A stretch of 56,624 bases of DNA from a virus. Its lineage: Duplodnaviria > Caudoviricetes. Where the stretch lies: IMG/VR virus record IMGVR_UViG_3300032250_000366, positions 1 through 56,624 of that record; one strand, 5' to 3'. The translations under genes and the position numbers were made by a program. Under the pieces are notes generated by a model that was not told where the DNA came from, made no database searches, and saw only the letters and a list, made by a program, of their open reading frames with translations. This document shows, piece by piece, positions 16,382-34,634 of this stretch (the first letter of the stretch is position 1; each line of letters starts with the position of its first letter).

Positions 16382-16494
16382 GAAATTGATTTGTAAGGTA
16401 AAAAGTCATAGCTTTGAAAAAGCAGGCTCATGCCCATTTACTGGTAAATCTTACAATATGTGCAAACGATGCTATCAGATGATTGAGGTAAATT

Positions 16495-17440: not shown

Positions 17441-17505
17441 CAAAGCGGCTATTAAATAGTATTATTTGTATATAAGGCGATTTGCCACCACAATAAGGAG
17501 TTATT

Positions 17506-17967: not shown

Positions 17968-17974
17968 CATTAAA

Positions 17975-19569: not shown

Positions 19570-19571
19570 GA

Positions 19572-19850: not shown

Positions 19851-20392
19851 ATAAATTTAATGTTGTAGATAAATTAGGGTCCTCTGTAATACATTTTTCA
19901 AATTGCTTAGATGACCCAGAAAAAATTGTATCTGCACTAGAATCTAAGCACTGGAAAGATGATAATACGCCTGAAAATAAGATAGGATCTATTGCGTTTT
20001 TTGGCGAATCAGAAATAGAGTACAAGCAAATACTTAGCGCTATGACTGAAGCAGCTACAATATTCCTATCTAGTACAAATAGAGATATTGCAGATTATGT
20101 TCCAGGGTTTAATTATGGGAAAGTAGTTAGATGGGAAACTAAATTTAAGGCCTTGCCTCGACACGTAGATGCTTGGAATGAAGATGGGGAGCGAATAACC
20201 CCAGATATAACATTAACTATGTATTTAACTAGTGATTATGATGGAGGGGAGATAGTTTTTAACTCTTTTGATAAAGCAATTAAGCCTATAGCTGGAGATA
20301 TAATAGCATTTGATTCCGACACCTGGCACAGCACAGAACCCTTCTTAGGTGGAAGAAGAATGACTAATTTGTTTTTCTTATTTAAAAAGTAG
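19847..20392 (+). CDS. 2OG-Fe(II) oxygenase, P4H-like (tandem paralogue A)
   Basis: HVD...MYLTSDYDGGE...WH...RR. Confidence 0.85.
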   Translation: MNKFNVVDKLGSSVIHFSNCLDDPEKIVSALESKHWKDDNTPENKIGSIAFFGESEIEYKQILSAMTEAATIFLSSTNRDIADYVPGFNYGKVVRWETKFKALPRHVDAWNEDGERITPDITLTMYLTSDYDGGEIVFNSFDKAIKPIAGDIIAFDSDTWHSTEPFLGGRRMTNLFFLFKK

Positions 20393-20410
20393 ATTGGATA
20401 TATTCATAAT

Positions 20411-20968
20411 ATGAATAGCTTTAATATTGTAGATAAAATAGATTCTTCCTTAATGCATATTTCAAATTGCTTAGAAGACCCAGAAAAAATTGTATCTGCT
20501 TTAAAGTCTAAAGAATGGAAAGAAGATCGTGCAGAAGATGGAAAGATTGGTCCATTTACATTTTTTAGAGAGCCAGAGATAGAGTATTATGAGATACTCG
20601 ATGCATTTATGCAGGCAGCAAAGTTGTTTCTGTCTAGCACAGATAAGGATATCGAAGACTACGAAAGAAGGCATCCATTCCACAGAGTAGTTAGCTGGGA
20701 AGTGTCTCCAAGCACATTAGTTCAACATCAAGACAGATGGGTTACTAAGGGTGAGCAGGTATCTCCAGAGATAAGTTTAAGCATGTACCTGACTGATGAT
20801 TATGATGGTGGAGAGCTGGTATTTAGTACCCTTGGTAAGAAAATTAAGCCTTCAGCTGGCGACATATTGGTCTTTGATTCTAATACTTTACATGGTACTG
20901 AGACATATTTAGGTGGAAGAAGAATGACTATTCAGTGTTTCCTATTTAAGAAAATAATTAATGAGTAA
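20411..20968 (+). CDS. 2OG-Fe(II) oxygenase, P4H-like (tandem paralogue B)
   Basis: HQD...MYLTDDYDGGE...LH...RR; shares SNCL-x-DPEKIVSAL with the previous gene. Confidence 0.85.
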   Translation: MNSFNIVDKIDSSLMHISNCLEDPEKIVSALKSKEWKEDRAEDGKIGPFTFFREPEIEYYEILDAFMQAAKLFLSSTDKDIEDYERRHPFHRVVSWEVSPSTLVQHQDRWVTKGEQVSPEISLSMYLTDDYDGGELVFSTLGKKIKPSAGDILVFDSNTLHGTETYLGGRRMTIQCFLFKKIINE

Positions 20969-21148
20969 GAATTGGGAAGATAAGTCCCAATGGATCACAA
21001 ACTGCCCAATATGCTACTGTGCAGTAACACACCAATTAAGAGACTATCATATACAATATCATGAAAATCAGGTCGCAATTAGTGAAGCGAAAAGTGAAGC
21101 GGTAGAGAGCATTTAGCCATTACATGGCACAAATGCTATAATACAGAT

Positions 21149-21361
21149 ATGGACAATACAATGGATTATTTATCAGATAACGAAGATGAAGACAAGTGGG
21201 ATAATATTGAAAAGGCATGCTGGAGGGGCTACACCCAAAGAGGCATGAAGGACAAAAATGGCAAGCAGGTGCCTAATTGTGTACCTATTGAAAAGGCGGA
21301 GGACTTATCTGAGGCGGGACAAATAGAGAAGTCACTCTGGAAAGGGGTATTCATTAAATAA
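21149..21361 (+). CDS. small protein with CWxGY...VPNCV motif
   Basis: KACWRGYTQRGMKDKNGKQVPNCVP; leaderless arrangement (TGCTATAAT-N6-ATG). Confidence 0.65.
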   Translation: MDNTMDYLSDNEDEDKWDNIEKACWRGYTQRGMKDKNGKQVPNCVPIEKAEDLSEAGQIEKSLWKGVFIK

Positions 21362-21535
21362 TGGGAATCCTAGATAACCTTGAAGCATACCTTGAATTAG
21401 ATGAATTATCCAATTTGGATATGACAGAAGATATTGATAAGGAATACTTAGATTAAGATAGAGTCAAGGCTTGGAAGCAAAGGCCTATACATATCAGGCT
21501 GCATAGATCAAGATCATTTACAAGCTATAAATTCA

Positions 21536-22039
21536 ATGAAAGAGTCATTGTATCAAGAAGAGAATATGCATTTTTACCTTTCTCTATTCAACATAGAAGT
21601 AAATAAAGACCTATTTGAGTATGCTACTGGAATGTTCCATGATGCAATCCTAGAATACTTTAATGAGTCTGGCAAAGATATATTAGATTATTTAGGATCT
21701 GATGTATATAAGATTAACTCATGGAAGACTGGAATAAGGCTAAATGAGCATGTGGACACCATCCAATATGGTGACTTAAATCAGTCAGCTGGTCCAAGAC
21801 CATCCATAAATGTACTTGCCTACTTGACTGATGACTACGAAGATGGAGAAATATTCTTTCCAGAAGTAGATGTGTCTATCAGGCCAAAAGCGGGTTCGGT
21901 GGTCATATTTGATTCTGATCTAATGCATGGAGTAAATGCAGTAAAGAGCGGGGAAAGAAGAACTATGTCCTCTAACCTATATAACATACACTCAGAAGAC
22001 ATAGAAGAGTTTAAGGCTAATGGGTGGAGAACTATATGA
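21536..22039 (+). CDS. 2OG-Fe(II) oxygenase, P4H-like
   Basis: HVD...AYLTDDYEDGEIFF...MHGV...ERR. Confidence 0.85.
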   Translation: MKESLYQEENMHFYLSLFNIEVNKDLFEYATGMFHDAILEYFNESGKDILDYLGSDVYKINSWKTGIRLNEHVDTIQYGDLNQSAGPRPSINVLAYLTDDYEDGEIFFPEVDVSIRPKAGSVVIFDSDLMHGVNAVKSGERRTMSSNLYNIHSEDIEEFKANGWRTI

Positions 22040-22143
22040 ATGAATTAGATTCATCTTGGGATAATGCACCAGATTGGTGCGATGATTGCAACTCAAATCC
22101 TGGAGAGAAATGTCCAGATTGTGGCTATACACATAATTGCTAG

Positions 22144-22172
22144 TTGACTAGGATTATATAGTATGCTATAAT
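22144..22172 (+). promoter_or_regulatory. sigma70-type promoter of the tRNA/ncRNA cluster
   Basis: TTGACT-N17-TATAAT with extended TG. Confidence 0.8.
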
Positions 22173-22182
22173 TAAATCCCAC

Positions 22183-22257
22183 AGCGGATTAGAGCAGTTC
22201 GGTTAGCTCGAAAGCCTCATAAGCTTTAGGTCATGGGTTCAAATCCCATATCCGCCA
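22183..22257 (+). tRNA. tRNA-Met(CAU), initiator-like
   Basis: A1-C72 mismatch, A11:U24, anticodon arm AAAGC-CTCATAA-GCTTT, GGTTCAAATCC. Confidence 0.88.
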
Positions 22258-22263
22258 CTCGGA

Positions 22264-22423
22264 GTATAGATCTGAACAATCTATGCAAAGATAGTTATAC
22301 TGAAACTTACACTGTCACCTGCATCATACGAAGGCGTTCAGGCTCATGGAGATTGCTCTGTGGTCGTGACTAGGTATAACAGCTAGCAGATGGTTTAGGT
22401 TAAGAGCCAAAGTCGTGGCTAGC
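22264..22423 (+). ncRNA. unannotated structured RNA between tRNA-Met and tRNA-Trp
   Basis: Helices GTATAGAT/ATCTATGC, GTTATACT/GGTATAAC, GTCAC/GTGAC, CATGGAG/CTCTGTG, GCTAGC/GCTAGC; no ORF in track. Confidence 0.5.
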
Positions 22424-22427
22424 AAAT

Positions 22428-22498
22428 ATCGTCTAAGTGTTATGGTAGCACTGCCGTCTCCAAAGCGGCAAGCCAAGGTTCGACTCCTTGAGACGGTG
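22428..22498 (+). tRNA. tRNA-Trp(CCA)
   Basis: Acceptor ATCGTCT/AGACGGT; GCCGT-CTCCAAA-GCGGC; GGTTCGACTCC. Confidence 0.9.
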
Positions 22499-22506
22499 CA
22501 GGAAAC

Positions 22507-22656
22507 GTTTGTATGGCAGACTATAGTTTAGCTAGCTACTAAACTGAACGTCGACTGCTTCCGCAAACTACAGGGGCAACTAGGAGTCTACTGTACCATC
22601 TCGTCGGGGGATGCGGTTAAAGGCCTTACAGTGTGGAATCTATAAACTGACCCGAC
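22507..22656 (+). ncRNA. unannotated structured RNA between tRNA-Trp and tRNA-Leu
   Basis: Helices GTTTGT/GCAAAC, GGCAG/CTGCT, AGTTTAG/CTAAACT, TACAG/CTGTA, GTCGGG/CCCGAC. Confidence 0.5.
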
Positions 22657-22658
22657 AT

Positions 22659-22732
22659 GCGTCAATAGCCCAACTGGTAGAGGCGTTAGTCTTAGGAACT
22701 AATGGTTGTAGGTTCGAGTCCTACTTGATGCA
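22659..22732 (+). tRNA. tRNA-Leu(UAG), short variable loop
   Basis: Acceptor GCGTCAA/TTGATGC; TTAGT-CTTAGGA-ACTAA; 5-nt variable region; GGTTCGAGTCC. Confidence 0.88.
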
Positions 22733-22733
22733 C

Positions 22734-22860
22734 GATATTAAGGTTGCGTGGCAGGCAAGTTAGGCTGACTCCCGACGGGGACAACTGGAGGACAACGGGC
22801 GATAGTAAATCCTCATATATCACGATCATTAGGTTAGTCTGCTCGTAGACCTATTGATCA
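22734..22860 (+). ncRNA. unannotated structured RNA downstream of tRNA-Leu(UAG)
   Basis: GATAT/ATATC closing AGG-TTGC/GTAA-AT-CCT, AGTT/AACT, TCCC-GACG-GGGA; then a GATCA-TTAGGT...ACCTA-TTGATC hairpin. Confidence 0.4.
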
Positions 22861-22948
22861 CATATTATGCTATATTGATCGCAATTAGTGAATCGGCGGC
22901 GGGAGAGACCAACTGGTCAGTACCTGACATAAATGCTATAATGAATAC

Positions 22949-23317
22949 ATGAAGAAGTATATGATTGCTGATCTGGTTAAGGCTATAGAGTCTGAAGAAG
23001 ACGTATATAATCGTAATCTCAACGAAGCTTTAATTCAATATAATAGAGACCCATTTACAGTAACTGGAACAAGTGTTACTAATTGGGGAACTAAAGAGAC
23101 GGCTACAAAAGAGACAGTAACACCAGAGCTAGACGAAGAATCACTAGGCACATATGAAGATATACTCAATGGAAACATAAACGACAATCCATCCTATGCC
23201 TTTGAAATCTTTGGATATTCATACGAGATTGACCTTGAGACTCTAGATGGATGGATCAATAGCCCCAAAATGAGCTATTACAATGCTAACATAAGGGTCA
23301 AACCAGATCCATTTTAG
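22949..23317 (+). CDS. hypothetical protein, leaderless
   Basis: ORF track; TGCTATAAT-N6-ATG. Confidence 0.65.
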   Translation: MKKYMIADLVKAIESEEDVYNRNLNEALIQYNRDPFTVTGTSVTNWGTKETATKETVTPELDEESLGTYEDILNGNINDNPSYAFEIFGYSYEIDLETLDGWINSPKMSYYNANIRVKPDPF

Positions 23318-23379
23318 GTCCTAACTCCTATATCCCCCTCCCATTTATCTTCCCTTATAGAGCCCTTAGAAGGCTTTTA

Positions 23380-23409
23380 AAGTGGAGTAATGTGGAGTAA
23401 AGTGGAGAA
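23380..23409 (+). repeat. three tandem 10-bp repeats (AWGTGGAGWA)
   Basis: aagtggagta-atgtggagta-aagtggagaa. Confidence 0.7.
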
Positions 23410-23869
23410 TATTTACTATAAATTCAGATCAATATACTATGGTTATACTTAGATAAACAATACTATGTAATGGGACATGAGAGTATCATATCGTAATCGT
23501 AATGTCAATAGCCCCATATGATTAATATGCAGCATATTCCAGCGATATTGTCAATAGCCCCGTAAATGGCATATTTGGCCCACATTGTCAACATAATTTG
23601 TATAACAATTTGATATAAATTTTGACAGATTCTGGCTATATTATGCCTAATTCATTATATGTTTTAATAGATAATATATTCATTTTATTATAATGTTCCC
23701 AATATTCCAGCGATTTTTAAAGCTTGGTCGTAAACAGATAATTTTGCCCACATGCCCATACAAAAAAAGATATCCACAGGACCTGTGTAGATCCTATGGA
23801 TATCTTGGGCTATATGATCAAGAGTAATACTCAGATAGTTATATCTTTTCGATCTGATCTATATGATGA

Positions 23870-24145
23870 CTATGCTTCTATTGGTTCAAAGTTAGAGATG
23901 TAATCATTTAGTCTGTCTGCCATAAATAGGGCTTCTGATGTAACCCCGTCTTCCCATGCATTATCAAACTGTCCCGCCGTCTGCTTAATGATTTCGACTA
24001 CTAACTCCATTATCTTAGCCTGAGCATAATGTCCTGAGTTATTTACTAAGGCACTTGCTAGGATACTTGGATTAAACCAATTATTATCCATAGCCTCGAT
24101 TAACTTGTCTGCTACTTTTGTTTCTGTTGATTGTGTTTTTGCCAT
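23870..24145 (-). CDS. hypothetical protein
   Basis: Start MAKTQSTE at 24145; upstream TTGACC-N17-TATAAT on - strand. Confidence 0.65.
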   Translation of the reverse strand: MAKTQSTETKVADKLIEAMDNNWFNPSILASALVNNSGHYAQAKIMELVVEIIKQTAGQFDNAWEDGVTSEALFMADRLNDYISNFEPIEA

Positions 24146-24191
24146 GTCCGCCCCTGTTCTTAACTCTCGATTATACCAAAAATAAGGAAGG

Positions 24192-24220
24192 GGGTCAAGG
24201 ACCAACGAAGCCCTGACCCC
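24192..24220 (-). terminator. hairpin after the Lsr2-like gene, overlapping the next -35
   Basis: GGGGTCAAGG...CCCTGACCCC inverted repeat. Confidence 0.55.
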
Positions 24221-24230
24221 GTCCCTGGTT

Positions 24231-24380
24231 TTACTTAGCCTTCTTAACAGGTGTCTCTGCAGTAAAGGTGATTCCCTTTGACTCTGCCTCAGCTAGAGCT
24301 ACCTTGGCTGCTCCTGAGAATCGACCACGTACGCCGACAGTAATGCCCTGCTGCTTTAGATATTCACGCTTTGTTGCCAT
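24231..24380 (-). CDS. stand-alone Lsr2-like DNA-binding peptide (49 aa)
   Basis: TKREYLKQQGITVGVRGRFS resembles the Lsr2 C-terminal IREWA-x3-G-x2-V-x2-RGRI motif; upstream TTTACA-N17-TATAAT. Confidence 0.6.
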   Translation of the reverse strand: MATKREYLKQQGITVGVRGRFSGAAKVALAEAESKGITFTAETPVKKAK

Positions 24381-24473
24381 TTGATAATCCCCTTTCAAGA
24401 GATAGTTGTTTTTTAAATTATAGCAACTTTCCACGGTTTTGTAAATAGTTGCCGTAAGCCTTTTTTCTTGCCC

Positions 24474-24614
24474 TTAAATTTGATCTACTTGTTCTACTCT
24501 ATCTCTAATTAGTTTAGAGATAATATTATGTGCTTCGATGTTCTCTGTTTCTGACCCACCCCATAACAAAGCTTGGGCCTTATTTAATTGATCATTAATA
24601 TATACATCACTCAT
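24474..24614 (-). CDS. hypothetical protein (46 aa)
   Basis: MSDVYINDQLNKAQALLWGGSETENIEAHNIISKLIRDRVEQVDQI. Confidence 0.5.
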   Translation of the reverse strand: MSDVYINDQLNKAQALLWGGSETENIEAHNIISKLIRDRVEQVDQI

Positions 24615-24921
24615 CTTCATCTTCTTCCTCCTCTTCTGCAAGCGGGTCCTTCATGTACCCGTTCTCCAACATCCATTCTTGTACATCTTCATAATGCTGT
24701 TCCGCCCCGTATTCCAGGGAAAACCCGTGCCCTGCTTCTACAGCCTTACATAGGTGGTCCCACATCTCATCCTCAGTGGAAACCATGGTCCAGTCTTCAC
24801 CACTCTCCATAAAGCCCTTAATGGTGCTCCATGTCCATAGCCACACCATAGATAGACCAAGGTCGGTGGTGCCTAGGATATCAATACATTCGTTTAGTTT
24901 ATCTTTATCTTCAGACTTCAA
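24607..24921 (-). CDS. acidic hypothetical protein
   Basis: TTG start after GGAG; poly-E/D tail. Confidence 0.6.
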   Translation of the reverse strand: MKSEDKDKLNECIDILGTTDLGLSMVWLWTWSTIKGFMESGEDWTMVSTEDEMWDHLCKAVEAGHGFSLEYGAEQHYEDVQEWMLENGYMKDPLAEEEEEDEDE

Positions 24922-25177
24922 TTTGTTCTCCAATCGCAAATGATAGTTGGTATGTTAGATTATATAGTTCTACTAAAGCGTCAAGATGTCCTTCAAGGTT
25001 CAATCTATCAACAGTCTGGTCATACTCTTCATCATCCTGATTTGTATATTCAGATAGTAATTGCTCGTCAATTAGCATTAGATTCTTTAGTTCTCCGTGC
25101 AAGATGTCAAGGCCTGATACACGTGCATTGACCATGCGCTGTAAATGGGGCGGGAGCCCAATGTCTTCTGGTGTCAT
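24911..25177 (-). CDS. hypothetical protein
   Basis: ORF track; AACGAAAGG leader. Confidence 0.65.
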   Translation of the reverse strand: MTPEDIGLPPHLQRMVNARVSGLDILHGELKNLMLIDEQLLSEYTNQDDEEYDQTVDRLNLEGHLDALVELYNLTYQLSFAIGEQIEV

Positions 25178-25407
25178 TATTCATACCTTTCGTTAGAAGA
25201 ATTCATTATATCAGTAGCCACTGACAAAAGATGACGGGTTGCCTGGATTTGTCCAACTATTTGATTATACTCATAGTCAAGAGCACGGAACTCATTTGAT
25301 TCTTGTTCCTCAAATAACTCCATCTCATCAGATAGTTTTTCCCTATCTTGTTCTAAACTAATTAGATGTAACTTCATGTACTCTAGAAACTTAGATGACT
25401 TAGTCAA
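25177..25407 (-). CDS. hypothetical protein; 3' end encodes the next promoter
   Basis: TTG start after GGAGG; LLSVATDIM codons spell TGTCAG-N10-TATAAT. Confidence 0.55.
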   Translation of the reverse strand: MTKSSKFLEYMKLHLISLEQDREKLSDEMELFEEQESNEFRALDYEYNQIVGQIQATRHLLSVATDIMNSSNERYE

Positions 25408-25557
25408 AATAACCCTCCGCCCATAGTCCTTGTAAAAAATCTTGTGCTTTCCACAAATTAGTATGCAAAGCTTTATAATCATCTGTATCAAGAACCTTTA
25501 GGGCTTCTTGGATTGCATCGATCATGTTATCTACATCTGTCATTTCATATCCTAACA

Positions 25558-25710
25558 CTATGCCACCTCGTATTCATGCAAATAGTTTAGTACATTGTGA
25601 ATAATGCAATCACAATCTTCCCCACCCATGTTATCCATAAAGTCTAGATGACTAAAGTTATCCTCATAGATTATATTAATTACTTTATCAAATAGTTCTA
25701 TTGTGCTCAT
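25558..25710 (-). CDS. hypothetical protein
   Basis: Start MSTIELF after GGAGG. Confidence 0.55.
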   Translation of the reverse strand: MSTIELFDKVINIIYEDNFSHLDFMDNMGGEDCDCIIHNVLNYLHEYEVA

Positions 25711-26480
25711 GCCTCCACCTTTTCTGTAGATTCCAATAATACCATGTGGGTCTGACATTTTTTCATAGCCTCTTCATCTCTCCATGAACCCTCGCTACAT
25801 TCAGAGCAGAATTGACCACAATCATTTTCGCAATAGTCAATGCAATCAAATGATTGGCAAGCATAGCAGCGAGTCTCGTATTCCATAATTTCTTTTACGT
25901 CACCACGGACAATCTCATACTCTCCACCCCAACCTGACTCCTCCTCGTACTCTAAGGTAAGCAGGCAGTTTGGAACAAGATTAGATAGTTTAGTTAGAAT
26001 AGTTACAGCAGGTGACCATGCAGTCTCATACTTATATACAAGCCAGTTGTCATCACCCTCAGACTTATATTCAATTAGTTCTGTGTTTGGATACTTGTCA
26101 TCATCTGATACAGCCACATCCCATTTAGTTCCCCAATTAGAATTGTTCCATGAGTACCAATCCTTTTGAGTCTTGGCAAACTCAACAGACTTAGCAAACC
26201 AATTAGGGTCCTTCATATCTACACCATCACGTGCAGGCTGGCAGGCATACTCCTCATCAGTAATGCCATCATCCTTATATGAATGAATGTTATAGAAAGC
26301 AAAGACAGGATTAGAATAAGTTACTTCTTTAATTTTGGTGGGGAAACCCATAGATGAAATATCACCCATACCATAAGTCTCTTGTGCTAATACAAAAGGC
26401 TTATTCAATCTATCCTTAATCATATCTACCTCAGACTTAGGTCCTTGAATAGTTAATGTGTTATACACCCAATTTGGCAT
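25707..26480 (-). CDS. DUF1281/YubB ferredoxin-like-domain protein
   Basis: MPNWVYNTLTI start, DWYSWNNSNWGTKWD, YETAWSPA motifs. Confidence 0.7.
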   Translation of the reverse strand: MPNWVYNTLTIQGPKSEVDMIKDRLNKPFVLAQETYGMGDISSMGFPTKIKEVTYSNPVFAFYNIHSYKDDGITDEEYACQPARDGVDMKDPNWFAKSVEFAKTQKDWYSWNNSNWGTKWDVAVSDDDKYPNTELIEYKSEGDDNWLVYKYETAWSPAVTILTKLSNLVPNCLLTLEYEEESGWGGEYEIVRGDVKEIMEYETRCYACQSFDCIDYCENDCGQFCSECSEGSWRDEEAMKKCQTHMVLLESTEKVEA

Positions 26481-26771
26481 ATTATATCCTTTCGTTGATA
26501 TGTGATAATTATACATTGGACCACTGACAAATGGAATACTATTTGGGTGTGTTTCACACCACATTTTGTATGCATGTGGTCAAAGTCATAAAATTCCAGG
26601 CGATTTGCTATTGACTTCTTAAAAGAAATATTTTACCCTTATTTTTTGCGGGCCGATCCAGATTTGTCAAGCTCTTATACAGGCTGCTATGGGTTCACCA
26701 ACGAAAGTAAAAGAACCATGCTTTATTTAACCCCTGGCCCAATGGACTGTTAGGGGCACCCTTGATTTAAT

Positions 26772-27167
26772 TTATGCTTCTACCCTAGAGTATTTATTAA
26801 TGAATGAGTCTAATGTAATTGTAAAGATGGGCTCATCCATCATGCCCTTGACCTTGGTATCTTCTTCCCACGAGGCTTCCTCATGAAGACTGAAGGTCCC
26901 TGAGCGCCAATCGATAACAGGAATTTTGTGCTCATTGTCTAGGATGTTATTAACTGTTAAGCCCCAGCCTGTAGTCTCATGCCAGTTGTCTCCAATTAGA
27001 TTAGAGATAACAATACGTGTTGCATATGATTCATCGGTCCAGCGAGGACGTGCCTTATCTACTGCCTCTGCAAGATTTGAAAGCATCTCGTGTCCAGCCC
27101 AGTGTCCATATAGAATAATCGTTTCATCATTAGATTGCTTGAATCCAAAGTTTGCTCTGTCGCCCAT
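26772..27167 (-). CDS. hypothetical protein
   Basis: MGDRANF...LYGHWAG ORF. Confidence 0.7.
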   Translation of the reverse strand: MGDRANFGFKQSNDETIILYGHWAGHEMLSNLAEAVDKARPRWTDESYATRIVISNLIGDNWHETTGWGLTVNNILDNEHKIPVIDWRSGTFSLHEEASWEEDTKVKGMMDEPIFTITLDSFINKYSRVEA

Positions 27168-27168
27168 T

Positions 27169-27378
27169 TTATTCCGCCGTTTCTAGTTGAGGTACCGCTT
27201 CTTCGATTTTGTTTAATTCTACCACTTCGTATGCGACCTTGTCAAGGCCTGCCTTGCTTGCGTTGTAATGGTGACCGCAAAAGAAAAGCTCACCATCTAC
27301 TAGTTTAACCATATACATAGCTTGAGCTGTGCCACATTGATCACAGCCAATCCATCTTGTTAAATCTTCTGTTGTCAT
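27169..27378 (-). CDS. small zinc-binding protein
   Basis: CDQCG...LFFCGHH. Confidence 0.65.
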   Translation of the reverse strand: MTTEDLTRWIGCDQCGTAQAMYMVKLVDGELFFCGHHYNASKAGLDKVAYEVVELNKIEEAVPQLETAE

Positions 27379-27522
27379 AGTGCCCCGCCTTCAATCATTT
27401 CGGAAAGACGGTCAAGAATCCAAGAGTCGATATCAGCAATATCAATCTCTGAAAGCTTCTCCATCATCTCTTCACGAGCAAACTTGTACCCGTCTTCAAA
27501 ACCATCTCTGTAATCTGACACT

Positions 27523-27738
27523 TTATCTCCTATTGTAAATTTCTGTTGGCTCGTAGTCTGATGTATAACTTTCAGTTAAATTATACTTATCACGAATACG
27601 ACTCACCTTCTCAATACTACCAGTTCCTACATTGAAAGTCAATGGTGACATTGCTACTGGGTCCAGCCCAGTTATCTGTGCATCCCAATAGGCTCTCTCC
27701 ATGGAGAGCCTATCAGGAGCGGTGAGTTCAAAGTACAT
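27523..27738 (-). CDS. hypothetical protein
   Basis: ORF track; TAATG coupling. Confidence 0.6.
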   Translation of the reverse strand: MYFELTAPDRLSMERAYWDAQITGLDPVAMSPLTFNVGTGSIEKVSRIRDKYNLTESYTSDYEPTEIYNRR

Positions 27739-28361
27739 TAGTATGCACCTTCCTCTACTCGGTCAATATCAAAGTTATTAATAGACATCTCTGATGCATA
27801 TGAATCAACAGTTAAGTTGTCCATAACAAACTGCTCAACGGCATCAAACGAATCTCCGCCAGTCAATTCAACCTCAACAGTTGCATCAACACGAACCCAA
27901 ACAGTTACTTCAATCTCCTTAGTTAAAGGAATGTCAAACATCTCTGCAATTTCCGTAAGCGCTTCTTGGTCATCTGAGTTCTCAAAGTTGTCGTGGATAA
28001 ATGTGCGAAGTTGTGATTCTTTCTTATACCACTCGTTCTGCTTATTTGTTAGGTTCTTATTAACCCAAACCATATGACGAATATCTGATTCAGTATAAGT
28101 CTTGTTGGTAACGACGTCGTTCTCAATCCAGTCAAGTGTCATAACCTGTGGTGTAGTTGTTTCTTCCATTGTTTCCTCTTTCGTTGTTGTTGAAGGTGCA
28201 ATTGTAGCATCGACCACTGACAAAAGGATGCAAGCGGTCCCACATCTGCATGTGAGGTCCATCACACCATTTGGCCATCCGTACCCATCTTTAAATGTAT
28301 ACTCGATCAATGCGTCGCAATCACCTGGGCATATCCATGTGTACTTTTGGTATGTTGTCAT
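27738..28361 (-). CDS. hypothetical protein with two in-frame starts (28361 leaderless; 28169 with own promoter and SD)
   Basis: MTTYQKYTWIC at 28361; MEETTTP at 28169. Confidence 0.6.
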   Translation of the reverse strand: MTTYQKYTWICPGDCDALIEYTFKDGYGWPNGVMDLTCRCGTACILLSVVDATIAPSTTTKEETMEETTTPQVMTLDWIENDVVTNKTYTESDIRHMVWVNKNLTNKQNEWYKKESQLRTFIHDNFENSDDQEALTEIAEMFDIPLTKEIEVTVWVRVDATVEVELTGGDSFDAVEQFVMDNLTVDSYASEMSINNFDIDRVEEGAY

Positions 28362-28467
28362 GACGAGAATTATACAGGACCACACTGACATTTGTCTATA
28401 GATTCCAGGGACTTTTTGATGTGACACTTAACACATTTTTTCGTCCCTAAGTATTGCGGGCATTTTG

Positions 28468-28541
28468 CGATCCATAACGGACTTGAACCGTCGACCTCTA
28501 CCGTGACAGGGTAGCGCTCTAACCAACTGAGCTAATGGACC
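28468..28541 (-). tRNA. tRNA-Asp(GUC)
   Basis: Acceptor GGTCCAT/ATGGATC; CTACC-CTGTCAC-GGTAG; GGTTCAAGTCC. Confidence 0.93.
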
Positions 28542-28548
28542 AATATGG

Positions 28549-28577
28549 TGAGCAGTTTTAAATCTTGCTCAGGATTT
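28549..28577 (-). ncRNA. small H-type pseudoknot motif, copy 2
   Basis: AAATC-C-TGAGCA-A-GATTT-AAAAC-TGCTCA. Confidence 0.6.
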
Positions 28578-28583
28578 TTTTAA

Positions 28584-29591
28584 TTAAAAAGCAGAAACTA
28601 ATTTTTTAATTTTATTTTTTTCTGCGGTAATGATTGGGTCAAATCCTGATGCACCTGCCATAAGTGTTTCAGAATTTCCACGACCTGAACGATAGTAATC
28701 AAGGCGCTCAGTTAGCGCATTGAATGCGCCCCACTTTGTTCCCTTGATTGTGGCGTTAGTTGGTGAGTTATGATAAAGGTCATCAAGCAAGACAACTTTA
28801 TTTTCCCACTTAGTAAGCGCAACTTTTGCAGCATCATCAGCAGGCTTTGGATAAATTGTCTGAATCAACTTTGAAAATTCAGCATCGGTGATTGACTGGT
28901 TAAACATCGCCTGCGCTTCCTTTTCAAATTCATCAAAGTAACCAAGAGCAAGACCAAGAGTCTCACGAGCAACTTGAATGCGACCTTCAACAGATTGCGT
29001 GTGGCGAATCTTGAAAGATTGCTTGGCCTGCTTCATTGCAAGGTTAAGAGTGTTTTGGCATACAACACGAACAGGAGTAACAGCAGCCTGAACAGCAACA
29101 GAGCCGTCGTGTGATGTCCATACGATTAGATAAAGTTTAGTTTCATCGTTGGCGCCTTGTGGGTCAAGAACCATGGTGCGAGGAATTTCAACAGTACCAA
29201 ATACAACTTTACCCTTACGCAATGAGCCAGCAGATTCCCAGCGGCAGTCAGCGTTGGCATCATGAATTGCATCAGCGAATGCAAACAATTCTTCATTCTG
29301 CACAGGCTTGTAGCGCTTGCCAACAGTTGCAAGAACATCAGTTCCGCCATTGAATGGATTATCACGCAACACGAGAGATGCAGTAGAAACATCATTCCAT
29401 GATTCTGGAATGTGCTCAGCGATTGGAGAAAGACGAACATTCCAATTTGCCAACTTTGCTTCTTCAAGCATTAGGGCAGTTGTAACTTCTTCGTCTTTTG
29501 TAAAAATACGGTTTGCAAGATTGTGCCAAGCAGGAGCGCCACGCAACGCAAATGCAACTTCGCCGTTTTCAACTTCGAGATTGTGAGCCAT
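28584..29591 (-). CDS. DUF932-family protein
   Basis: MAHNLE...PAWH, YKPVQNEELF, ESAGSL, TSHDGS, TPVRVVCQNTL, RHT, GTKWGAFNALTE. Confidence 0.85.
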   Translation of the reverse strand: MAHNLEVENGEVAFALRGAPAWHNLANRIFTKDEEVTTALMLEEAKLANWNVRLSPIAEHIPESWNDVSTASLVLRDNPFNGGTDVLATVGKRYKPVQNEELFAFADAIHDANADCRWESAGSLRKGKVVFGTVEIPRTMVLDPQGANDETKLYLIVWTSHDGSVAVQAAVTPVRVVCQNTLNLAMKQAKQSFKIRHTQSVEGRIQVARETLGLALGYFDEFEKEAQAMFNQSITDAEFSKLIQTIYPKPADDAAKVALTKWENKVVLLDDLYHNSPTNATIKGTKWGAFNALTERLDYYRSGRGNSETLMAGASGFDPIITAEKNKIKKLVSAF

Positions 29592-29710
29592 ATATTTATT
29601 ACCTTTCGTTTGATTAGTTGTAAGTATAACAGACCCCACTGACATTGTCTAGGATTAGTTACTATATGTCCGATTTGATCCATGTGAGTAATCTCACAAA
29701 ATTCCAGGGG

Positions 29711-29742
29711 TTTTCCACAAGCTCACTTAAACCTGTGGATAA
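29711..29742. promoter_or_regulatory. inverted DnaA-box pair
   Basis: TTTTCCACA-N14-TGTGGATAA. Confidence 0.7.
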
Positions 29743-29774
29743 CCCCGCACATTATTGCGGGCCAAAAAATAAGC

Positions 29775-29794
29775 GGGGCAGAATTAACTGCCCC
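29775..29794 (-). terminator. intrinsic terminator
   Basis: GGGGCAG-N6-CTGCCCC followed by TTATTTTTT on - strand. Confidence 0.7.
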
Positions 29795-29800
29795 ACCTAT

Positions 29801-30028
29801 TTACTTGTACAATGATTTTACGTAATTTACTGTTTCCATAGTAACAAACGCCGCTGATGTTTTCTTTTTATTTTTTTGATCATAGACAAAAGCTTTAACA
29901 TTTCCATCAAACCGCTTTAGGTTTGAGAATACAAGTTCTTTGAGGCTTTCATTATCGTAGCCCTCATCTGAATAGATTGTTAAATCATTTGCTTTTACTT
30001 CGTCGTACATTTCAATCTTGAAACGCAT
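29801..30028 (-). CDS. hypothetical protein
   Basis: ORF track. Confidence 0.65.
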   Translation of the reverse strand: MRFKIEMYDEVKANDLTIYSDEGYDNESLKELVFSNLKRFDGNVKAFVYDQKNKKKTSAAFVTMETVNYVKSLYK

Positions 30029-30062
30029 TTCTTTACCTTTGTTAGTAGTTGTCCCCGAAGGG

Positions 30063-30090
30063 AGAGCAGTTTGGCGACATACTCAGGTCG
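30063..30090 (-). ncRNA. small H-type pseudoknot motif, copy 3
   Basis: CGAC-C-TGAGTA-T-GTCG-CCAAAC-TGCTCT. Confidence 0.6.
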
Positions 30091-30099
30091 TTGGATTAT

Positions 30100-30516
30100 T
30101 TAGAGATACTTAGCAATTTGCTTCATTGTAGAAGCATTAACTGTTTCCTCATCTGTCATCTTGAGAATTGTGAGAGCGTTTGTGATGTCCTCTACAATTT
30201 CATTGTATGTGTGCTGGTGCATGATTGTGAAATCACGCTCTGGCTCTTTAGGGAAATCGCTTTCCTTTACAATTAAATCAAAATCAACATTGAGAGAGTT
30301 GTTCCAAGAGCGATAGTTTGTGCGGAAGTTTTCAGCCTTCTTGATGTTTGCAATAGCAAAATCTTGAACTTCCTTGCGCCACTTCTCTCTTGCCTTCTCA
30401 TACTTTGCTTCGTTTGCACCTTGCTCAGCATAGTCTTTCTTGATTGTTGCTAACTTTGTTTCCAAAGCCTTGATTACCTTTGGTGTTGCCACCTTTACTG
30501 TGATTGCTCTTGACAT
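30100..30516 (-). CDS. hypothetical protein
   Basis: ORF track; AACGAAAGAGG leader. Confidence 0.75.
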   Translation of the reverse strand: MSRAITVKVATPKVIKALETKLATIKKDYAEQGANEAKYEKAREKWRKEVQDFAIANIKKAENFRTNYRSWNNSLNVDFDLIVKESDFPKEPERDFTIMHQHTYNEIVEDITNALTILKMTDEETVNASTMKQIAKYL

Positions 30517-30650
30517 TTTTCCTCTTTCGTTGGTTGGTTGATGTTATGAGTAGTATAGCAGGGGGGTCTGACAAACCCCGTAGGGTGGAAGTTCTTACTT
30601 AGGACATTGTGCGAGATACTTCCGAAACTGCACCTGTTTCCATTATTTAG

Positions 30651-30830
30651 TTATGATGCCAAAGTGCTTGCTGATACTGATGTCCAGCGAGTTTCCTTGT
30701 TTGGCATTTCTAGCAACACACGCACCGAGCCAGATGCTTGTGGGTGGATTTCTTTAATCACACCTGTCTTTTTTGACTTTAGGGTGGTGAATAAATCTCC
30801 AACCTGATACAACTTATCTTGTACTGTCAT
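30651..30830 (-). CDS. small SH3/KOW-like protein
   Basis: Start MTVQDK; YQVGDLF...TGVIKEI...VRVLL. Confidence 0.55.
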   Translation of the reverse strand: MTVQDKLYQVGDLFTTLKSKKTGVIKEIHPQASGSVRVLLEMPNKETRWTSVSASTLAS

Positions 30831-31062
30831 TTGCTTCCTTCTTTCTGTGTAGGGTAGTATTGTAGCATTAGGGACTGACATCTATCAACCCCTATCTCAT
30901 TATTTGAGAAAGTTATTGTGTGATTAGTATCACAAGTAGTCGGTTAAGTCTTGATCCATTATCTCATTGACATCTACGCCTTGAGATTCTGCAATTGCAT
31001 CCCATAGGTCGGACTCCGTGAAGTCTCCGCTAGGGTGCATCTCAGCTAAGATAGAATAAAGA

Positions 31063-31338
31063 TTACTCATCGTAGTCCTCCTGTGGTAGCCATGCGTCTA
31101 AGTGGTGAGCATCAACGATAGCCGATGCGGGGCATGAGTCTTGCCCACGCCATAAGATACCGCCAGGCAAGTCAATCATTCTATCGTAGTCCTCCTCATA
31201 GTATGCATCAATAGCATCTATGCAAGGTTGCACCATAGCAACGGGGACGGGTGGGTAATGATTACCCTGTAAGTGATAAGCAAGTCCTGCCTCTAGTGAT
31301 AAGTCATCTGCAAGTGATAATGCTGTTGTGTATCCCAT
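31063..31338 (-). CDS. hypothetical protein
   Basis: Start MGYTTAL; HLQGNHYPPVP motif. Confidence 0.65.
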   Translation of the reverse strand: MGYTTALSLADDLSLEAGLAYHLQGNHYPPVPVAMVQPCIDAIDAYYEEDYDRMIDLPGGILWRGQDSCPASAIVDAHHLDAWLPQEDYDE

Positions 31339-31340
31339 TA

Positions 31341-31565
31341 TTAGTTTCCCTTCGTGATAGATAGTTCTGCCCAAGAAAAACCTGTATTAGCAACTGTTAA
31401 TACATCTGCAATTGCTAGTGCAGAGTGTGTTGCTTCTGAACACATCTTTACAAGTTCATCCTCAGATAAAGATAATAGGGCTGGAAGTAGATTAGAGTCA
31501 ATCTTATCTAGGTCAATAGTAGCAACAAACTCTACTGTGTGTGGTACTGTCATTACATTACTCAT
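31341..31565 (-). CDS. hypothetical protein
   Basis: ORF track; AACGAAAGG leader. Confidence 0.65.
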   Translation of the reverse strand: MSNVMTVPHTVEFVATIDLDKIDSNLLPALLSLSEDELVKMCSEATHSALAIADVLTVANTGFSWAELSITKGN

Positions 31566-31676
31566 GTTATGCCTTTCGTTGTTGGTATAAGAGTATTATA
31601 GCGTATGGGTCCGACATTACCTAATCCATTTACGGCGTGTCGCAGCTTTTGTGAGAATGATCACAAAATTCCAGGG

Positions 31677-31708
31677 TTATCCACACCTCTACTTAAACCT
31701 GTGGATAA
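31677..31708. promoter_or_regulatory. inverted DnaA-box pair
   Basis: TTATCCACA-N14-TGTGGATAA, both perfect. Confidence 0.75.
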
Positions 31709-32094
31709 ACCCTCACATATGTGCGGGTGCCGACTTTGTCAAGTCGACACACCTTTACATTTTATAAAACATGTATCCAATTAAAATAAATGGGGCCACT
31801 GATATTAATATCAAAACGGATCCGCCAATTGCACCGATTACATCATACAATTTCTTTCCCCTTGTGTTTAACCTTTCGCCTATATTTCTTTTTATTGCGT
31901 ACAGGTTGCGCCGCATTGCTACGGCGTAACTCTTGTATTCGTTTTACTTTATCTTTAAGGCTCATTTATCCACTCCGCCAATTCTTGTAAATCTTGCTCA
32001 CACGCACACGCAGAAATTTCTATCATGTCTTCATGCTGAACAATAAACGCCGAGTCATTACAAGCCTCGCAATAAATAGCTGACATTTCTAAAA

Positions 32095-32289
32095 TCATTT
32101 TTCTACCTTTCCAAAAATTGTTGTGTAGTTGCTAGCTTCGTGAAATCTTACAACATCAAAACGCGGATTATCTTTTGCAAACATCTCCGCAAAATCATTT
32201 ACGATTTTAGAAAATAGCGCTGGATGTGTTTTGTTGCTTGCATACTTTAAAATTTCTGCAGTTGCTACATAGTCTTTGCGAGTCATCAT
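32095..32289 (-). CDS. hypothetical protein
   Basis: MMTRKDYV...DNPRFD-x2-RF. Confidence 0.65.
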   Translation of the reverse strand: MMTRKDYVATAEILKYASNKTHPALFSKIVNDFAEMFAKDNPRFDVVRFHEASNYTTIFGKVEK

Positions 32290-32489
32290 TTTTGTGTAAC
32301 CTTTCCATTTCGGTAGAAGTTCTTAGTGTAAAGTTTTCCGCTAGGGATTAAAAGATTTACAGTTGAGTATTCGTTAGCCCAGCCCCAATCAACAAATGCA
32401 AGAAATGCGGTAAATGCTTCTAGAGCGTCCTCATAGTTCTTGTTGAAGTGGATAGGGTTGCCATCATAGGCGACAGTTATTTGGTACAT
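32286..32489 (-). CDS. hypothetical protein
   Basis: ORF track; AACGAAAGGG leader. Confidence 0.65.
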   Translation of the reverse strand: MYQITVAYDGNPIHFNKNYEDALEAFTAFLAFVDWGWANEYSTVNLLIPSGKLYTKNFYRNGKVTQK

Positions 32490-32825
32490 AGGTTTTCCCT
32501 TTCGTTTGTTATTTGGAAATTATAGCAGAGGGGTCTGACAAATTAGAGGGCGCCTTCTTGAAATAAGCCTATCTCAAGAGTGAGCAATTCCTCTGGGGTG
32601 GCTTGATCCAAATCCACCCACCCAGCGCCTTCATCATCAAGGCGGAAAAATTCAATGTGTCCCATTAGTGTTGTTCCTCGCAATCTTTAGAATAATCAAA
32701 CTCGCAAAAGTAGCAACCCATAAACTCTAGGTGTTCCTCGCAATAATACTTAAACTGACTTTCATCACAGCAAAAAAATTGCTCATCTGCGATTTCATAG
32801 AAATCGGTTTTATCAATTATGTTCA

Positions 32826-33026
32826 TTAGTCACCAACCTTCACCGCTACATAACGGTATGTATCTTTAATCGAATTAGTAGGGCGCACCTGCACCTTGTA
32901 AGTGTCTGCACCTGAATACCAGACATCATCATTTTTTTCGGCTGAGATAATCTCGCCTTTTACGGAATTAGAGTAATACATTTTTCCCACTAGGAGACTT
33001 TCGACATTATAGACATTTGCTGACAT
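32826..33026 (-). CDS. hypothetical protein
   Basis: ORF track; AACGAAAGG leader. Confidence 0.65.
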   Translation of the reverse strand: MSANVYNVESLLVGKMYYSNSVKGEIISAEKNDDVWYSGADTYKVQVRPTNSIKDTYRYVAVKVGD

Positions 33027-33763
33027 TAGTTGTCACCTTTCGTTTGTGTGTTTGTAATTGTAGCAGAGAGGACTGACAAGGCTTGAGCCGTTGAGGCCTT
33101 GCGTGTTGCCTCTACATGGGCACGGAACTCGTCTAGGTTCATTACTGACCTTCTTTCGTTGTTGTTATAGTAGTATTATAGCCTATGGCACTGACATTTA
33201 TGACATTACTAGCCAGTAAGTCCAAGATGTGAGACGCTCAAGCAATGTGTTTTACATCACATCAAAATGTCCTAATTGTCTGTCAAATCGACACGCCGCA
33301 GAATTCGGGGGATTTTATAACTTGTTCATAACGACACGCCCGACCCCGTAGCTATGTGGGGGATGCCGACTTTTGTCAAGTCGACACGCCGTATTTATTT
33401 AATTTTATCTAGAATCTTTTCTAGTTCTTTTAATTGTTCTAGGTTAAGGTGATCTAGTTGAATCGCTTTCTCAAATCCGAATAGGTCTTCCATTAGTTAC
33501 CCTTTCTTAGTTCTCTAAAGTCTTCTTTTACCATGTGCCACATCATGAGCCCCATGTAGAGGGCGGGGATAGCAATAGCCAATTGCACTAGGCTAGTTAG
33601 TAGTCTATTCATTAGTTAGTTACCTCTAGCAATTCTCTATGTGCATCTCCATTGTTAGAACACTCATAGCAGTAGGTCTCGGTAGGCACACCCAATAGAA
33701 AAGCATCTACACCGCTATAGACTAGTTCGGTTGAATCGCATACATCTATCTTACATTTTCTCA

Positions 33764-33931
33764 TTAGTTCCCTACCTTTATGTTCTGAATGTTAGCGGTG
33801 AATTTTGTTTTCTTACCTAGGTCGCTATCGTTAAGAGATGCTATTAGGTGGTCAATAGCCTTGACCTCATGCGCTACATTGTCGATAGATAGTAAGCGAG
33901 AGCCTTGCCAAATTGAGTAGGTGATAGTCAT
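33764..33931 (-). CDS. hypothetical protein
   Basis: Start MTITYSIW after GGGAG. Confidence 0.55.
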   Translation of the reverse strand: MTITYSIWQGSRLLSIDNVAHEVKAIDHLIASLNDSDLGKKTKFTANIQNIKVGN

Positions 33932-33933
33932 TA

Positions 33934-34113
33934 TTAGTTCTCCCATGTTAGTGTGAATAGTTTGGCTAGTTCTTCATCATCTGCATCATCAAAATCATCA
34001 ACGGGTGGTTGTTCGGTTTCTTCTTCATCTAGGTAAGAGTATGCGTCTGCAACATCTGATTGAATAGTGTCCCACTTAGAGACCGAGTTACTTTCGTATG
34101 AGTATGCGTACAT
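33934..34113 (-). CDS. small acidic protein (59 aa)
   Basis: MYAYSYESNSVSKWDTIQSDVADAYSYLDEEETEQPPVDDFDDADDEELAKLFTLTWEN. Confidence 0.6.
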   Translation of the reverse strand: MYAYSYESNSVSKWDTIQSDVADAYSYLDEEETEQPPVDDFDDADDEELAKLFTLTWEN

Positions 34114-34211
34114 TTTTTTCTTCTTTCGTTAGTTCGTTATGTTGTAATTATAGCGTATAGGTCGGACATTTAAGGGACTTAGGGGGGTGTGTCTATGTGA
34201 TTCGCATCACA

Positions 34212-34367
34212 TTAGATGCAAGCGACACACTCGCAACCCTTAGAGCGGATTAGGTACTTTAGTACCTCTTTACGGGTGTATGTGTCTAATCCATAAGATG
34301 ATGACACGCCACCATTGTGATACTCATGCACGATAGTGCTAAAGAGTTGTTCTGTAAGTTGAGCCAT
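34212..34367 (-). CDS. first gene of the early region (51 aa, Cys-rich end)
   Basis: MAQLTEQLFSTIVHEYHNGG...GCECVACI; AACGAAAGGAG leader. Confidence 0.6.
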   Translation of the reverse strand: MAQLTEQLFSTIVHEYHNGGVSSSYGLDTYTRKEVLKYLIRSKGCECVACI

Positions 34368-34634
34368 TTTATGACTCCTTTCGTTTGTTTGTTATAGTAT
34401 AAGCGTAACACGGGGGACTGACAAATAGCAACTCCAAATTCGGACATTATGGACAAATCAAAAAAATACTTTGTGATGCTCATCACATTGACCATATGCT
34501 CACGCTCAATATGTGCGGACTATCCCAAATGTCCGTTTCTATAAAATACGTGTATCGTACAAATTAAAAATTTATTAACATTTTGTGAAATTTCAAATAG
34601 TAGTTGACTGAACTTATAATGCTATACTGTTTAT

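Follow-up and report, generated by a model that had tools for sequence, protein, structure and literature searches.

An oriented, rigidly spaced intergenic element with predicted host-regulator sites in the early gene block of a putative lake actinophage

The early regions with which large lytic phages take over their hosts are the least understood part of their genomes. The stoperators of cluster A mycobacteriophages are single 13- to 14-bp sites, distributed genome-wide, for the immunity repressor of a temperate phage. The left terminal repeat of phage T5 has non-coding repeat regions and an injection-stop signal (iss); its eight DnaA boxes lie in pairs 3 bp apart within the large inverted repeats IRC and IRD of one long untranslated region, and paired DnaA boxes are reported from the first-entering repeat of 25 T5-like phages (Davison, bioRxiv 10.1101/866236). 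The PeSL elements of T4-like phages combine a stem-loop, a -35-like TTTAC word and a fixed spacer into a working sigma-70 promoter (-10, TAYWAT), followed by a Shine-Dalgarno sequence and a start codon; they lie in one orientation between small early open reading frames (ORFs), in a plastic region in which the repeats bound some cassette-sized insertions and deletions (Comeau, Arbiol and Krisch 2014, PMC4122927). PafBC-dependent (RecA-NDp) promoters of actinobacteria lack a -35 element but possess one at -26, and read tGTCgg(N10)tA(N3)T (Mueller et al. 2021, PMC8635444). Here we describe a tripartite element of about 60 bp that occurs eight times in IMG/VR record IMGVR_UViG_3300032250_000366, a viral DNA of 56,624 nucleotides (hereafter, the window) that is the complete assembly (56.6 kb) of a phage fragment.

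Between about 23.8 and 34.5 kb of the window the genes are all small and all on the minus strand. A preliminary description of this DNA had reported a WTTCCAG-like block followed at fixed offsets by C(T/G/A)TAA and CCC, in intergenic and co-oriented copies starting at 23536, 23704, 24428, 26593, 28402, 29701, 31668, and 33303. The three blocks were present at those offsets at all eight starts, and all eight copies were on the minus (gene) strand. Their intergenic placement was borne out as well, the copy at 24428 touching the stop codon of an ORF at 24474-24620. The spacing was then compared with that in 300 first-order Markov simulations of the window. The pattern gave six (strict) or eight (loose) matches in the real sequence against means of 0.0 and 0.01, respectively, in the simulated ones; the real matches all fell on the plus strand as written, with none on the opposite strand. 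A sequence-only covariance model built from 73 copies, six of them from the window, returned exactly the same eight places on the minus strand at E <= 5.3e-4, and the next match had an E value of 0.23.

Complementing WTTCCAG gives the third block of the element as read in the direction of the genes, C(T/G/A)TAA gives the second, and CCC the first. In this direction the skeleton consists of a weak GC hairpin ending in GGG, a first slot, the central TTAcG, a second slot, and the anchor CC-CTG(G/A)AA(T/A). TTAcG lies 15 bp beyond GGG, and the anchor block lies 23 bp beyond TTAcG. The first slot is about 10 bp long and precedes (G/T)TTAcG, and the second is about 14 bp long, often with an A-run at its end; the third block reads CC-CTGGAAT-TT. 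In the alignment of copies the unchanging columns were GG(G), TTA, and C.TGGAAT, the slots were variable, and the sequence logo contained no conserved box downstream of +8. The hairpin has the consensus GCCCGCAAA..TG.GGG, its 3' arm terminating in the invariant GGG. The imperfect CCC...GGG inverted repeat noted earlier is a real hairpin but a weak one, with a mean minimum free energy (MFE) of -7.6 kcal/mol against -5.1 kcal/mol for shuffled sequences (144 distinct copies); by a rough test, GGG formed the paired 3' arm in 77 of these 144.

The host-regulator sites that had been assigned to the gaps of the element were all found as claimed. Copy 6 (29696..29765, 50.5 bits, E = 7.8e-15 with the covariance model) lies upstream of a DUF932 gene (28584..29591, minus strand; PF06067, E = 9.6e-57) and carries two DnaA boxes, one at 29734-29742 (TTATCCACA, on the gene strand) and one inverted at 29711-29719 (TTTTCCACA). 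Copy 7 (31663..31732, 38.8 bits) has two perfect DnaA boxes in inverted orientation, at 31677-31685 and 31700-31708. All four boxes match the DnaA 9-mer TT(A/T)TNCACA, and binding of DnaA to them is predicted from this match. Copy 5 (28397..28466, 41.3 bits) begins right after a tRNA-Asp gene (28467..28541, minus strand; found by ARAGORN and Rfam), which is flanked within the early block by the DUF932 gene and this copy, and stops 11 nt ahead of a PafBC-type promoter; a CRP-like palindrome (28420-28435, TGTGA-N6-ACACA with one mismatch) is centred on its TTAAG block. The slots of copy 4 (26588..26657, 44.1 bits, E = 8e-13) are AT-rich and include GTCAATAG.

The copies at 24428 and 33303 are weak, degenerate members. 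Copy 3 (24429..24482, 15.9 bits, E = 5.3e-4) reads GGGC...CTTACGG...CGTGGAAAG, with TTTCCAC in place of ATTCCAG, and overlaps a TTTACA-N17-TATAAT promoter of an Lsr2-like mini-gene; an equally weak counterpart is present in relatives (e.g., at 25367-25410 of the complete related genome G003). The first slot of copy 8 (33306..33361, 24.7 bits, E = 1e-6) is GTCGGGCGTGTCG, with GACAC on the other strand, and CGACACGCC lies at 33332. Its anchor has decayed to CCCCCGAAT (ATTCGGG in the orientation of the preliminary description); orthologues in relatives retain CCCTGGAAT. Copies 1 and 2 are of a terminal type. Copy 1 (23531..23600; model match 23534-23586, 29.4 bits, E = 3.3e-8) has orthologues in relatives and reads TTGACAAT...GGGC, a slot, ATTTACG, a slot holding TATTGACAATA, and then CGCTGGAAT, with TTGACAAT repeats as slot content. 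Copy 2 (23699..23768; model match 23700-23753, 34.2 bits, E = 1e-9) comes directly after the T-run terminator that closes the minus-strand block (hairpin at about 23770-23810). Two further kinds of site adjoin elements, namely, GCCGACTTTGTCAAGTCGACAC palindromes (31726-31750 and 33366-33390) and boxes of the CGACACGCC type, which have GACAC inside; palindrome or box positions were also recorded at 33289, 33332, 33382, and 31634.

Relatives were fetched by means of the DUF932 protein, which yielded 80 IMG/VR loci with 91 to 95% protein identity among 248 stretches encoding a relative. Over these 80 loci, where all counts are inflated by close relatives, CTGGAAT was found 353 times along the gene strand, as against 62 on the opposite one. 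In the loci and the window together, a relaxed version of the skeleton gave 431 gene-strand and 27 other-strand matches, 240 of them distinct. In a sister lineage the anchor is CCTGAAA or CTGAAAW. Each of the five near-complete relatives searched (112 to 117 kb) contained nine matches to the covariance model, all on one strand and within about 11 kb, which makes the element a family-wide, oriented feature of a single genome block. No near-identical phage record was found for the 10-kb region itself.

Four perfect DnaA boxes occur in the window (0.63 expected), three of them inside copies 6 and 7, which hold in addition the TTTTCCACA box. In G003, six of the seven perfect TTATCCACA boxes (1.26 expected) are inside elements. 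Elements hold four DnaA boxes in the window and seven (six perfect) in G003. The degenerate DnaA consensus was not enriched genome-wide in G003 (18 matches versus 19 expected), and it is the perfect boxes in elements alone that stand out. For the copy upstream of DUF932, a strict regular expression caught 53 copies among the 81 sources; the first slot was a DnaA box in all of them, TTATCCACA in 52, and the second box was inverted in 47 and direct in 6. The 28 sources that were missed, 27 of them covered by 19 distinct sequences and the 28th being the window copy itself, deviate in nothing but a shift of 1 nt or an altered anchor and carry the same box pair, one of them in direct orientation. 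Orthologous copies at one locus can thus differ in the orientation of the second box. The paired boxes are 12 to 13 bp apart and flank TTAcG, and the variants TTTTCCACA, ATATCCACA, TTATTCACA, and TTATACACA alter positions that the DnaA consensus tolerates. The remaining slot classes are the CRP-type palindrome on TTAcG (28402), GTCGGGCGTGTCG (33303), the TTGACAAT repeats (23536), and AT-rich sequence.

We then determined where the elements lie relative to promoters. A motif search for TGTC[AGC]G-N10-TAnnnT found 13 PafBC-type promoters on the minus strand between 25205 and 34423 (ends at 25226, 26529, 28222, 28390, 29644, 30573, 30880, 31616, 32540, 33078, 33196, 34168, and 34423) and 2 on the plus strand, i.e., 15 in the window versus 0.4 expected on both strands together; the gene strand of G003 has 13. 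A leader of the form ..CGAAAG.. precedes the ATG at 11 of the 13 promoters, and the start at 28361, 7 nt past TATAAT, appears leaderless. Each of copies 4 to 8, on the gene strand like the others, has a PafBC-type promoter no more than 110 nt downstream. An ordinary promoter overlaps copy 3; no promoter of the PafBC type comes after copy 1 or copy 2. The promoters after the elements fit the published PafBC motif and spacing, and their dependence on PafBC is predicted. This likeness concerns the neighboring promoter and not the element, the accessible part of that article (PMC8635444) describing no upstream scaffold of GGG, TTAcG, and CTGRAAW.

Perfect TGTGA-N6-TCACA palindromes occur six times in the window (28251, 29683, 30919, 31650, 34196, and 34472; 0.06 expected), all within 28251-34487 and hence in the early block alone, and eight times in G003 (at 14751-22974; 0.14 expected), all inside the block. 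NrdR-type boxes were not seen in the window; its palindromes read TGTG...CACA. The palindrome at 29683..29698 begins 3 to 4 nt past the anchor of copy 6, and the layout is the same after copy 7 (31650-31665). Among 170 distinct elements, 72 have a perfect palindrome no more than 40 nt downstream. The palindromes are helically phased to the -10 hexamer: measured from the palindrome centre, the hexamer is 52.5, 62.5, 72.5/73.5, 83.5, or 94.5 away in 276 of 308 distinct cases, with the other 32 at 57.5/58.5, although these counts are inflated by orthologues and there are only about eight independent sites per genome. Judged by its spacing, this is the pattern of an upstream activator, like that of class I activator sites. 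The protein that binds the palindrome could be the host Crp/GlxR or a phage protein.

The best isolate matches of the phage are Streptomyces phages of the BE cluster (Stanwilliamsviridae), with about 50% identity for DUF932 and 65% for class II ribonucleotide reductase (RNR). In the related genomes a WhiB-like gene, with an open frame of 131 to 145 amino acids (aa), lies outside the early block (43768-43941 in G003 and 3568-3741 in G001), and it is also present in the BE-cluster phage Jay2Jay (113701-113874). An actinobacterial host is indicated by the Lsr2-like fragment, the WhiB-like genes of relatives, the BE-phage matches, and the PafBC-type promoters. The Lsr2-like ORF (24231-24380, minus strand, 49 aa) covers the N-terminal part of Lsr2-like DNA-bridging proteins only (phrog_6269, E = 6.7e-8) and is 49% identical over 47 aa to the Lsr2-like gene of Jay2Jay; possibly it is a shortened version that would interfere with the host Lsr2.

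Jay2Jay (NC_029098.1) and Genie2 (MK359332.1) have a minus-strand block of small genes with DUF932, followed by a transglycosylase and a class II RNR. Judged by the positions of repeated motifs, the direct terminal repeat that contains the homologous block measures 11.4 kb in the former and 12.4 kb in the latter, and the DUF932 protein of the window is about 50% identical to the terminal-repeat genes of both. Coruscant, a phage of the same cluster, has a 12-kb repeat by coverage and is predicted to be virulent (PMC7650747). Because of this synteny, the window block at about 23.35 to 34.6 kb is probably a long terminal repeat. A tblastn search with the block proteins against the Jay2Jay and Genie2 repeats returned DUF932 and the Lsr2-like fragment only. 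Contig ends did not reveal a physical genome end, since 37 truncated loci end at scattered positions with no convergence, and the terminase family PF03237 was not found in G003. By synteny, the left end of the virion DNA (the outer repeat edge) may lie within 23318-23535, a few hundred base pairs beyond copy 1; the same interval contains an outward-facing TTGACA-N17-TACTCT promoter with no ORF behind it.

The core of the element is found in these cultured phages as well. TTTACGA occurs 18 times on the reverse strand of Jay2Jay and 10 times on the forward strand (9 to 10 in the reversed control). Six of the 18 lie at 215-678, and the identical six are in the right repeat copy. In Genie2, which belongs to another genus, 6 of 22 lie at 233-667, again with the same six in the right copy, and one further word lies 880 bp inside the other edge of the repeat. 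Four of the six terminal words of Jay2Jay are followed at 14 to 17 nt, past an A-rich stretch, by a CYGG-type block. The BE repeats share with the lake element the TTTACGA centre, the A-rich spacer, the CYGG(R)A block, and the early-gene strand, and their core copies lie beyond the last gene, which is the position of window copies 1 and 2. They differ in having no DnaA-box slots and in being clustered in the terminal 700 bp rather than ahead of each operon, the operon-proximal gaps carrying a GTCCGnCCCGGACA palindrome instead. From the occurrence of the core in the BE-phage repeats, the centre and anchor blocks predate the lake lineage, and their ancestral place may have been the outer end of the repeat. 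No description of the terminal TTTACGA motif was found in the literature searched, and none of the repeated GTCCGnCCCGGACA operator of Jay2Jay as far as we searched. In that phage (locus L081, 1080-10812) nearly every gap between repeat genes carries, in this order, a GGGCCCTTCGGGGCCC-type terminator, a GTCCGnCCCGGACA palindrome, and a TTGTAT-N17-TAGACT promoter. The window and one of the Jay2Jay terminal-repeat gaps (L081, 5313-5526) have a similar GACAGACA..TAGGACATTTTGA string in common.

In the reading that we favor, with a probability of roughly 45%, the element would be a conserved upstream cassette, read by proteins, that controls early transcription units and sets their boundaries. The phage itself would be an actinophage from a lake, uncultured and akin to the Streptomyces phages of the BE cluster, with the block probably as its terminal repeat. 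The element would act as double-stranded DNA, with its three fixed blocks forming an oriented scaffold for a reader protein and GGG standing at the base of the weak hairpin with which the preceding unit ends. The gaps beside TTAcG would be slots for interchangeable sites of global host regulators, namely, DnaA boxes, palindromes of the CRP/GlxR type, and GACAC-type boxes. After the anchor there would usually be another CRP-type palindrome, in helical register with the PafBC-type promoter driving the next genes. Such a cassette would separate one early unit from the next and couple the firing of the next promoter to the replication, cyclic AMP, and DNA damage state of the host. The stoperators resemble the element in being asymmetric, placed in short intergenic gaps in one orientation to transcription, and numerous in each genome. 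They differ from the tripartite unit of about 60 bp, which is confined to one block; moreover, the BE relative Coruscant is predicted to be virulent, and no repressor was found in the lake-phage analysis.

Several observations weigh against the control-cassette reading. No element accompanies eight of the 13 PafBC-type promoters of the window, which shows that promoters of this type do not require it. The distance from element to promoter varies from 10 to about 105 nt, the class C copy is about half a turn away from the others in its rotational phase with respect to the promoter, and the regular palindrome spacing comes from few independent sites, as stated above. Searches of the approximately 36 ORFs of the block against Pfam and PHROGs revealed no DNA-binding domain, returning only DUF932, DUF1281_C, DUF7455, DUF7230, and the Lsr2-like fragment; DUF932 has no relative of solved structure, and no functional account of it was found among the articles listed for the term. 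Sigma region 2 was not found in two relatives or in Jay2Jay. The skeleton TTTACG-N15-17-CTGGAAT gave 24 matches versus 21 for the reversed control in 401 sampled genomes from the phylum of one Actinomycetota metagenome-assembled genome, so that a host regulon using it was not found there, and the true host lineage may lie outside the sample. Finally, the terminal copies at 23536 and 23704 have no PafBC-type promoter or gene after them, and the BE-phage core lies in non-coding DNA 215 to 680 bp from the genome end. Such terminal placement fits a function at the DNA end at least as well as a transcriptional one.

That placement is the starting point of an alternative we regard as unlikely, though by no means negligible, in which the element is a terminal-repeat DNA signal comparable to the T5 iss region, its blocks together with adjacent host DnaA pausing or anchoring the entering DNA, protecting or processing its end, or marking the repeat for packaging. 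The T5 comparison had been made in the preliminary description, and it gains weight from the synteny of the block with the long direct terminal repeats of Jay2Jay and Genie2, from the gathering of their TTTACGA...CYGGA core at the outer repeat end, with window copies 1 and 2 in the corresponding place, and from the uniform orientation of the copies. The paired DnaA boxes of the 25 T5-like phages (bioRxiv 10.1101/866236) fit as well. Both systems have repeated non-coding motifs in a long terminal repeat (a probable one here) with the earliest genes, a siphovirus genome of about 115 to 130 kb with many tRNAs, and consensus DnaA boxes at fixed positions that are conserved while the genes of relatives diverge. 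The details of the arrangement part them. In T5, the eight boxes of each repeat are in 3-bp-spaced pairs within the large inverted repeats IRC and IRD of one untranslated stretch; the lake element has no such pairs, its boxes being 12 to 13 bp apart with TTAcG between them, and it is a unit of about 60 bp that recurs eight or nine times between genes, mostly just upstream of promoters, with other sites in the slots of other copies. In addition, the lake-phage terminal repeat is deduced from synteny, the ends of the 37 truncated loci being scattered, and the T5 model is itself a proposal.

Could the element itself be a promoter of an unusual class? In that case TTTACG would be the -35 hexamer, followed by a 17- to 18-bp spacer and TG(G/A)AA(T/A) at -10, read by the host RNA polymerase with an alternative or adapted sigma factor, and with DnaA or CRP sites as operators. 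The distance from hexamer start to hexamer start is 23 to 24 bp, and the slots fall at operator positions, just upstream of -35 and in the spacer. Mycobacterial recA has a two-promoter arrangement, which tandem promoters here would parallel. A stem-loop with TTTACW-N17-TAYWAT is, moreover, the layout published for PeSL in T4 and PST (PMC4122927). It is at the -10 position that the promoter reading fails, because no anchor variant (CTGGAAT, CCTGAAA, CTGAAAA, CTGAAAT, or CTGGAAA) has the TA of TAnnnT there and all have G at the second hexamer position. The spacing is about 5 nt too long for the sigma-B/F-type GTTT...GGGTAT, and the logo contains no GTT or CGT box at the distance typical of extracytoplasmic function (ECF) sigma factors. 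Together with the lack of phage sigma region 2 and of enrichment in the sampled host-phylum genomes, both given above, this leaves the promoter reading doubtful. Comparison by eye with consensus sequences rejected sigma-54, sigma-B/F, ECF (GGAAT-N18-GTT), sigma-H, and sigma-32, none of which fits both blocks and the spacing.

A variant that joins protein reading with DNA handling appears quite doubtful to us. A phage or virion protein would sit on TTAcG and CTGRAAW and, with DnaA- and CRP-type proteins held in the slots, control the DNA itself in the first-entering repeat. The element would then be a directional docking signal, family-wide in the lake and the Streptomyces BE-cluster phages, for staged genome entry or for handling of the end. 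Strand-specific nicking at such a signal could supply the single-stranded DNA that switches on the adjacent PafBC-type promoters, and if this were true, the phage would trigger its own early genes via the DNA damage alarm of the host.

It is improbable that the element is mainly a recombination site for shuffling early gene cassettes in the manner of PeSL, another comparison offered in the preliminary description. When all loci were compared with one another, 840 pairs differed by a clean insertion of 300 bp or more; these fall into 20 classes. The comparison with PeSL was borne out in part: two classes run from one element start (within about 20 bp) to the next (within about 6 bp), their insertions measuring about 1260 bp (18 carriers) and about 1102 bp (9 carriers), and a third (752 bp) is nearly element-bounded; the other 17 are not. 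In 44 of 139 distinct insertion events both ends lay no more than 100 bp from an element start, a distance within which random points fall in 15% of cases per end. The elements flanking an insertion share GCCCGCA..ATA at their 5' edges, and the number of DnaA-type units differs between genomes, as shuffling would have it. The element remaining in the shorter genomes is, however, intact and not a chimera of the two flanking ones, and relatives keep the slot types in one order along the block, which argues that the copies are mostly orthologous and not shuffled. Selection for intact units would also put surviving insertions and deletions at unit borders, and the rigid spacing and invariant blocks would be left unexplained. 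Units do come and go at element borders, and this looks like a side effect rather than the purpose of the element. The likeness to PeSL extends to a stem-loop, though a weak one in the lake element, the TTTAC word, the fixed spacer, the single orientation, and the plastic region of small early ORFs. An internal sigma-70 -35/N17/-10 followed by a Shine-Dalgarno sequence and start, as in PeSL, was not found; the position of the -10 is occupied by CTG(G/A)AA(T/A), without TA, the PafBC-type promoter lies 10 to 105 nt further on, and the gene start is beyond that separate promoter. The lake element further differs in its host-regulator slots and belongs to another phage family with a host from another phylum.

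Highly improbable is a structured RNA or DNA cruciform with covarying arms around a TTAAG/TTACG loop: TTAcG-centred hairpins do form in A-inverted copies (n = 20, mean MFE -21.9, z = -5.5) and class C copies (n = 18, z = -3.0), and window copies 28402, 29701, and 31668 look hairpin-like, but 94 of 132 distinct copies are fold-free (31 A-direct, z = -0.87; 13 of class B, z = +0.5; 50 "other," z = 0), orthologues switch between inverted and direct boxes, and Rfam has no family in the window besides tRNAs. With only two of the five slot classes folding across the element and the second box flipping, a common RNA or cruciform fold was rejected. Of the multi-contact footprint proposed at the outset, what holds is that reading by a protein is the simpler account, three of the five slot classes being fold-free.

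The fixed scaffold sets DnaA- and CRP-type sites in defined slots beside PafBC-type promoters in many contigs of uncultured lake actinophages. This points to phages that would read several host-state signals at once or use the regulators mechanically on entering DNA, and it may bear on the unexplained injection-stop region of T5. The core at the repeat end of cultured Streptomyces phages makes the question of the reader testable in the laboratory.

Outside the early block, the window encodes at least 10 ORFs with 2-oxoglutarate-Fe(II) oxygenase domains (10235-22039, 37279-38127, and 54941-55678), a KatG catalase-peroxidase (13068-15161), and a glutathione peroxidase (17506-17967). KatG was uninformative as a host marker, being 57 to 67% identical to genes of many phyla. 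The load of oxidative-stress and hydroxylase genes in the window is unusually large for a phage.

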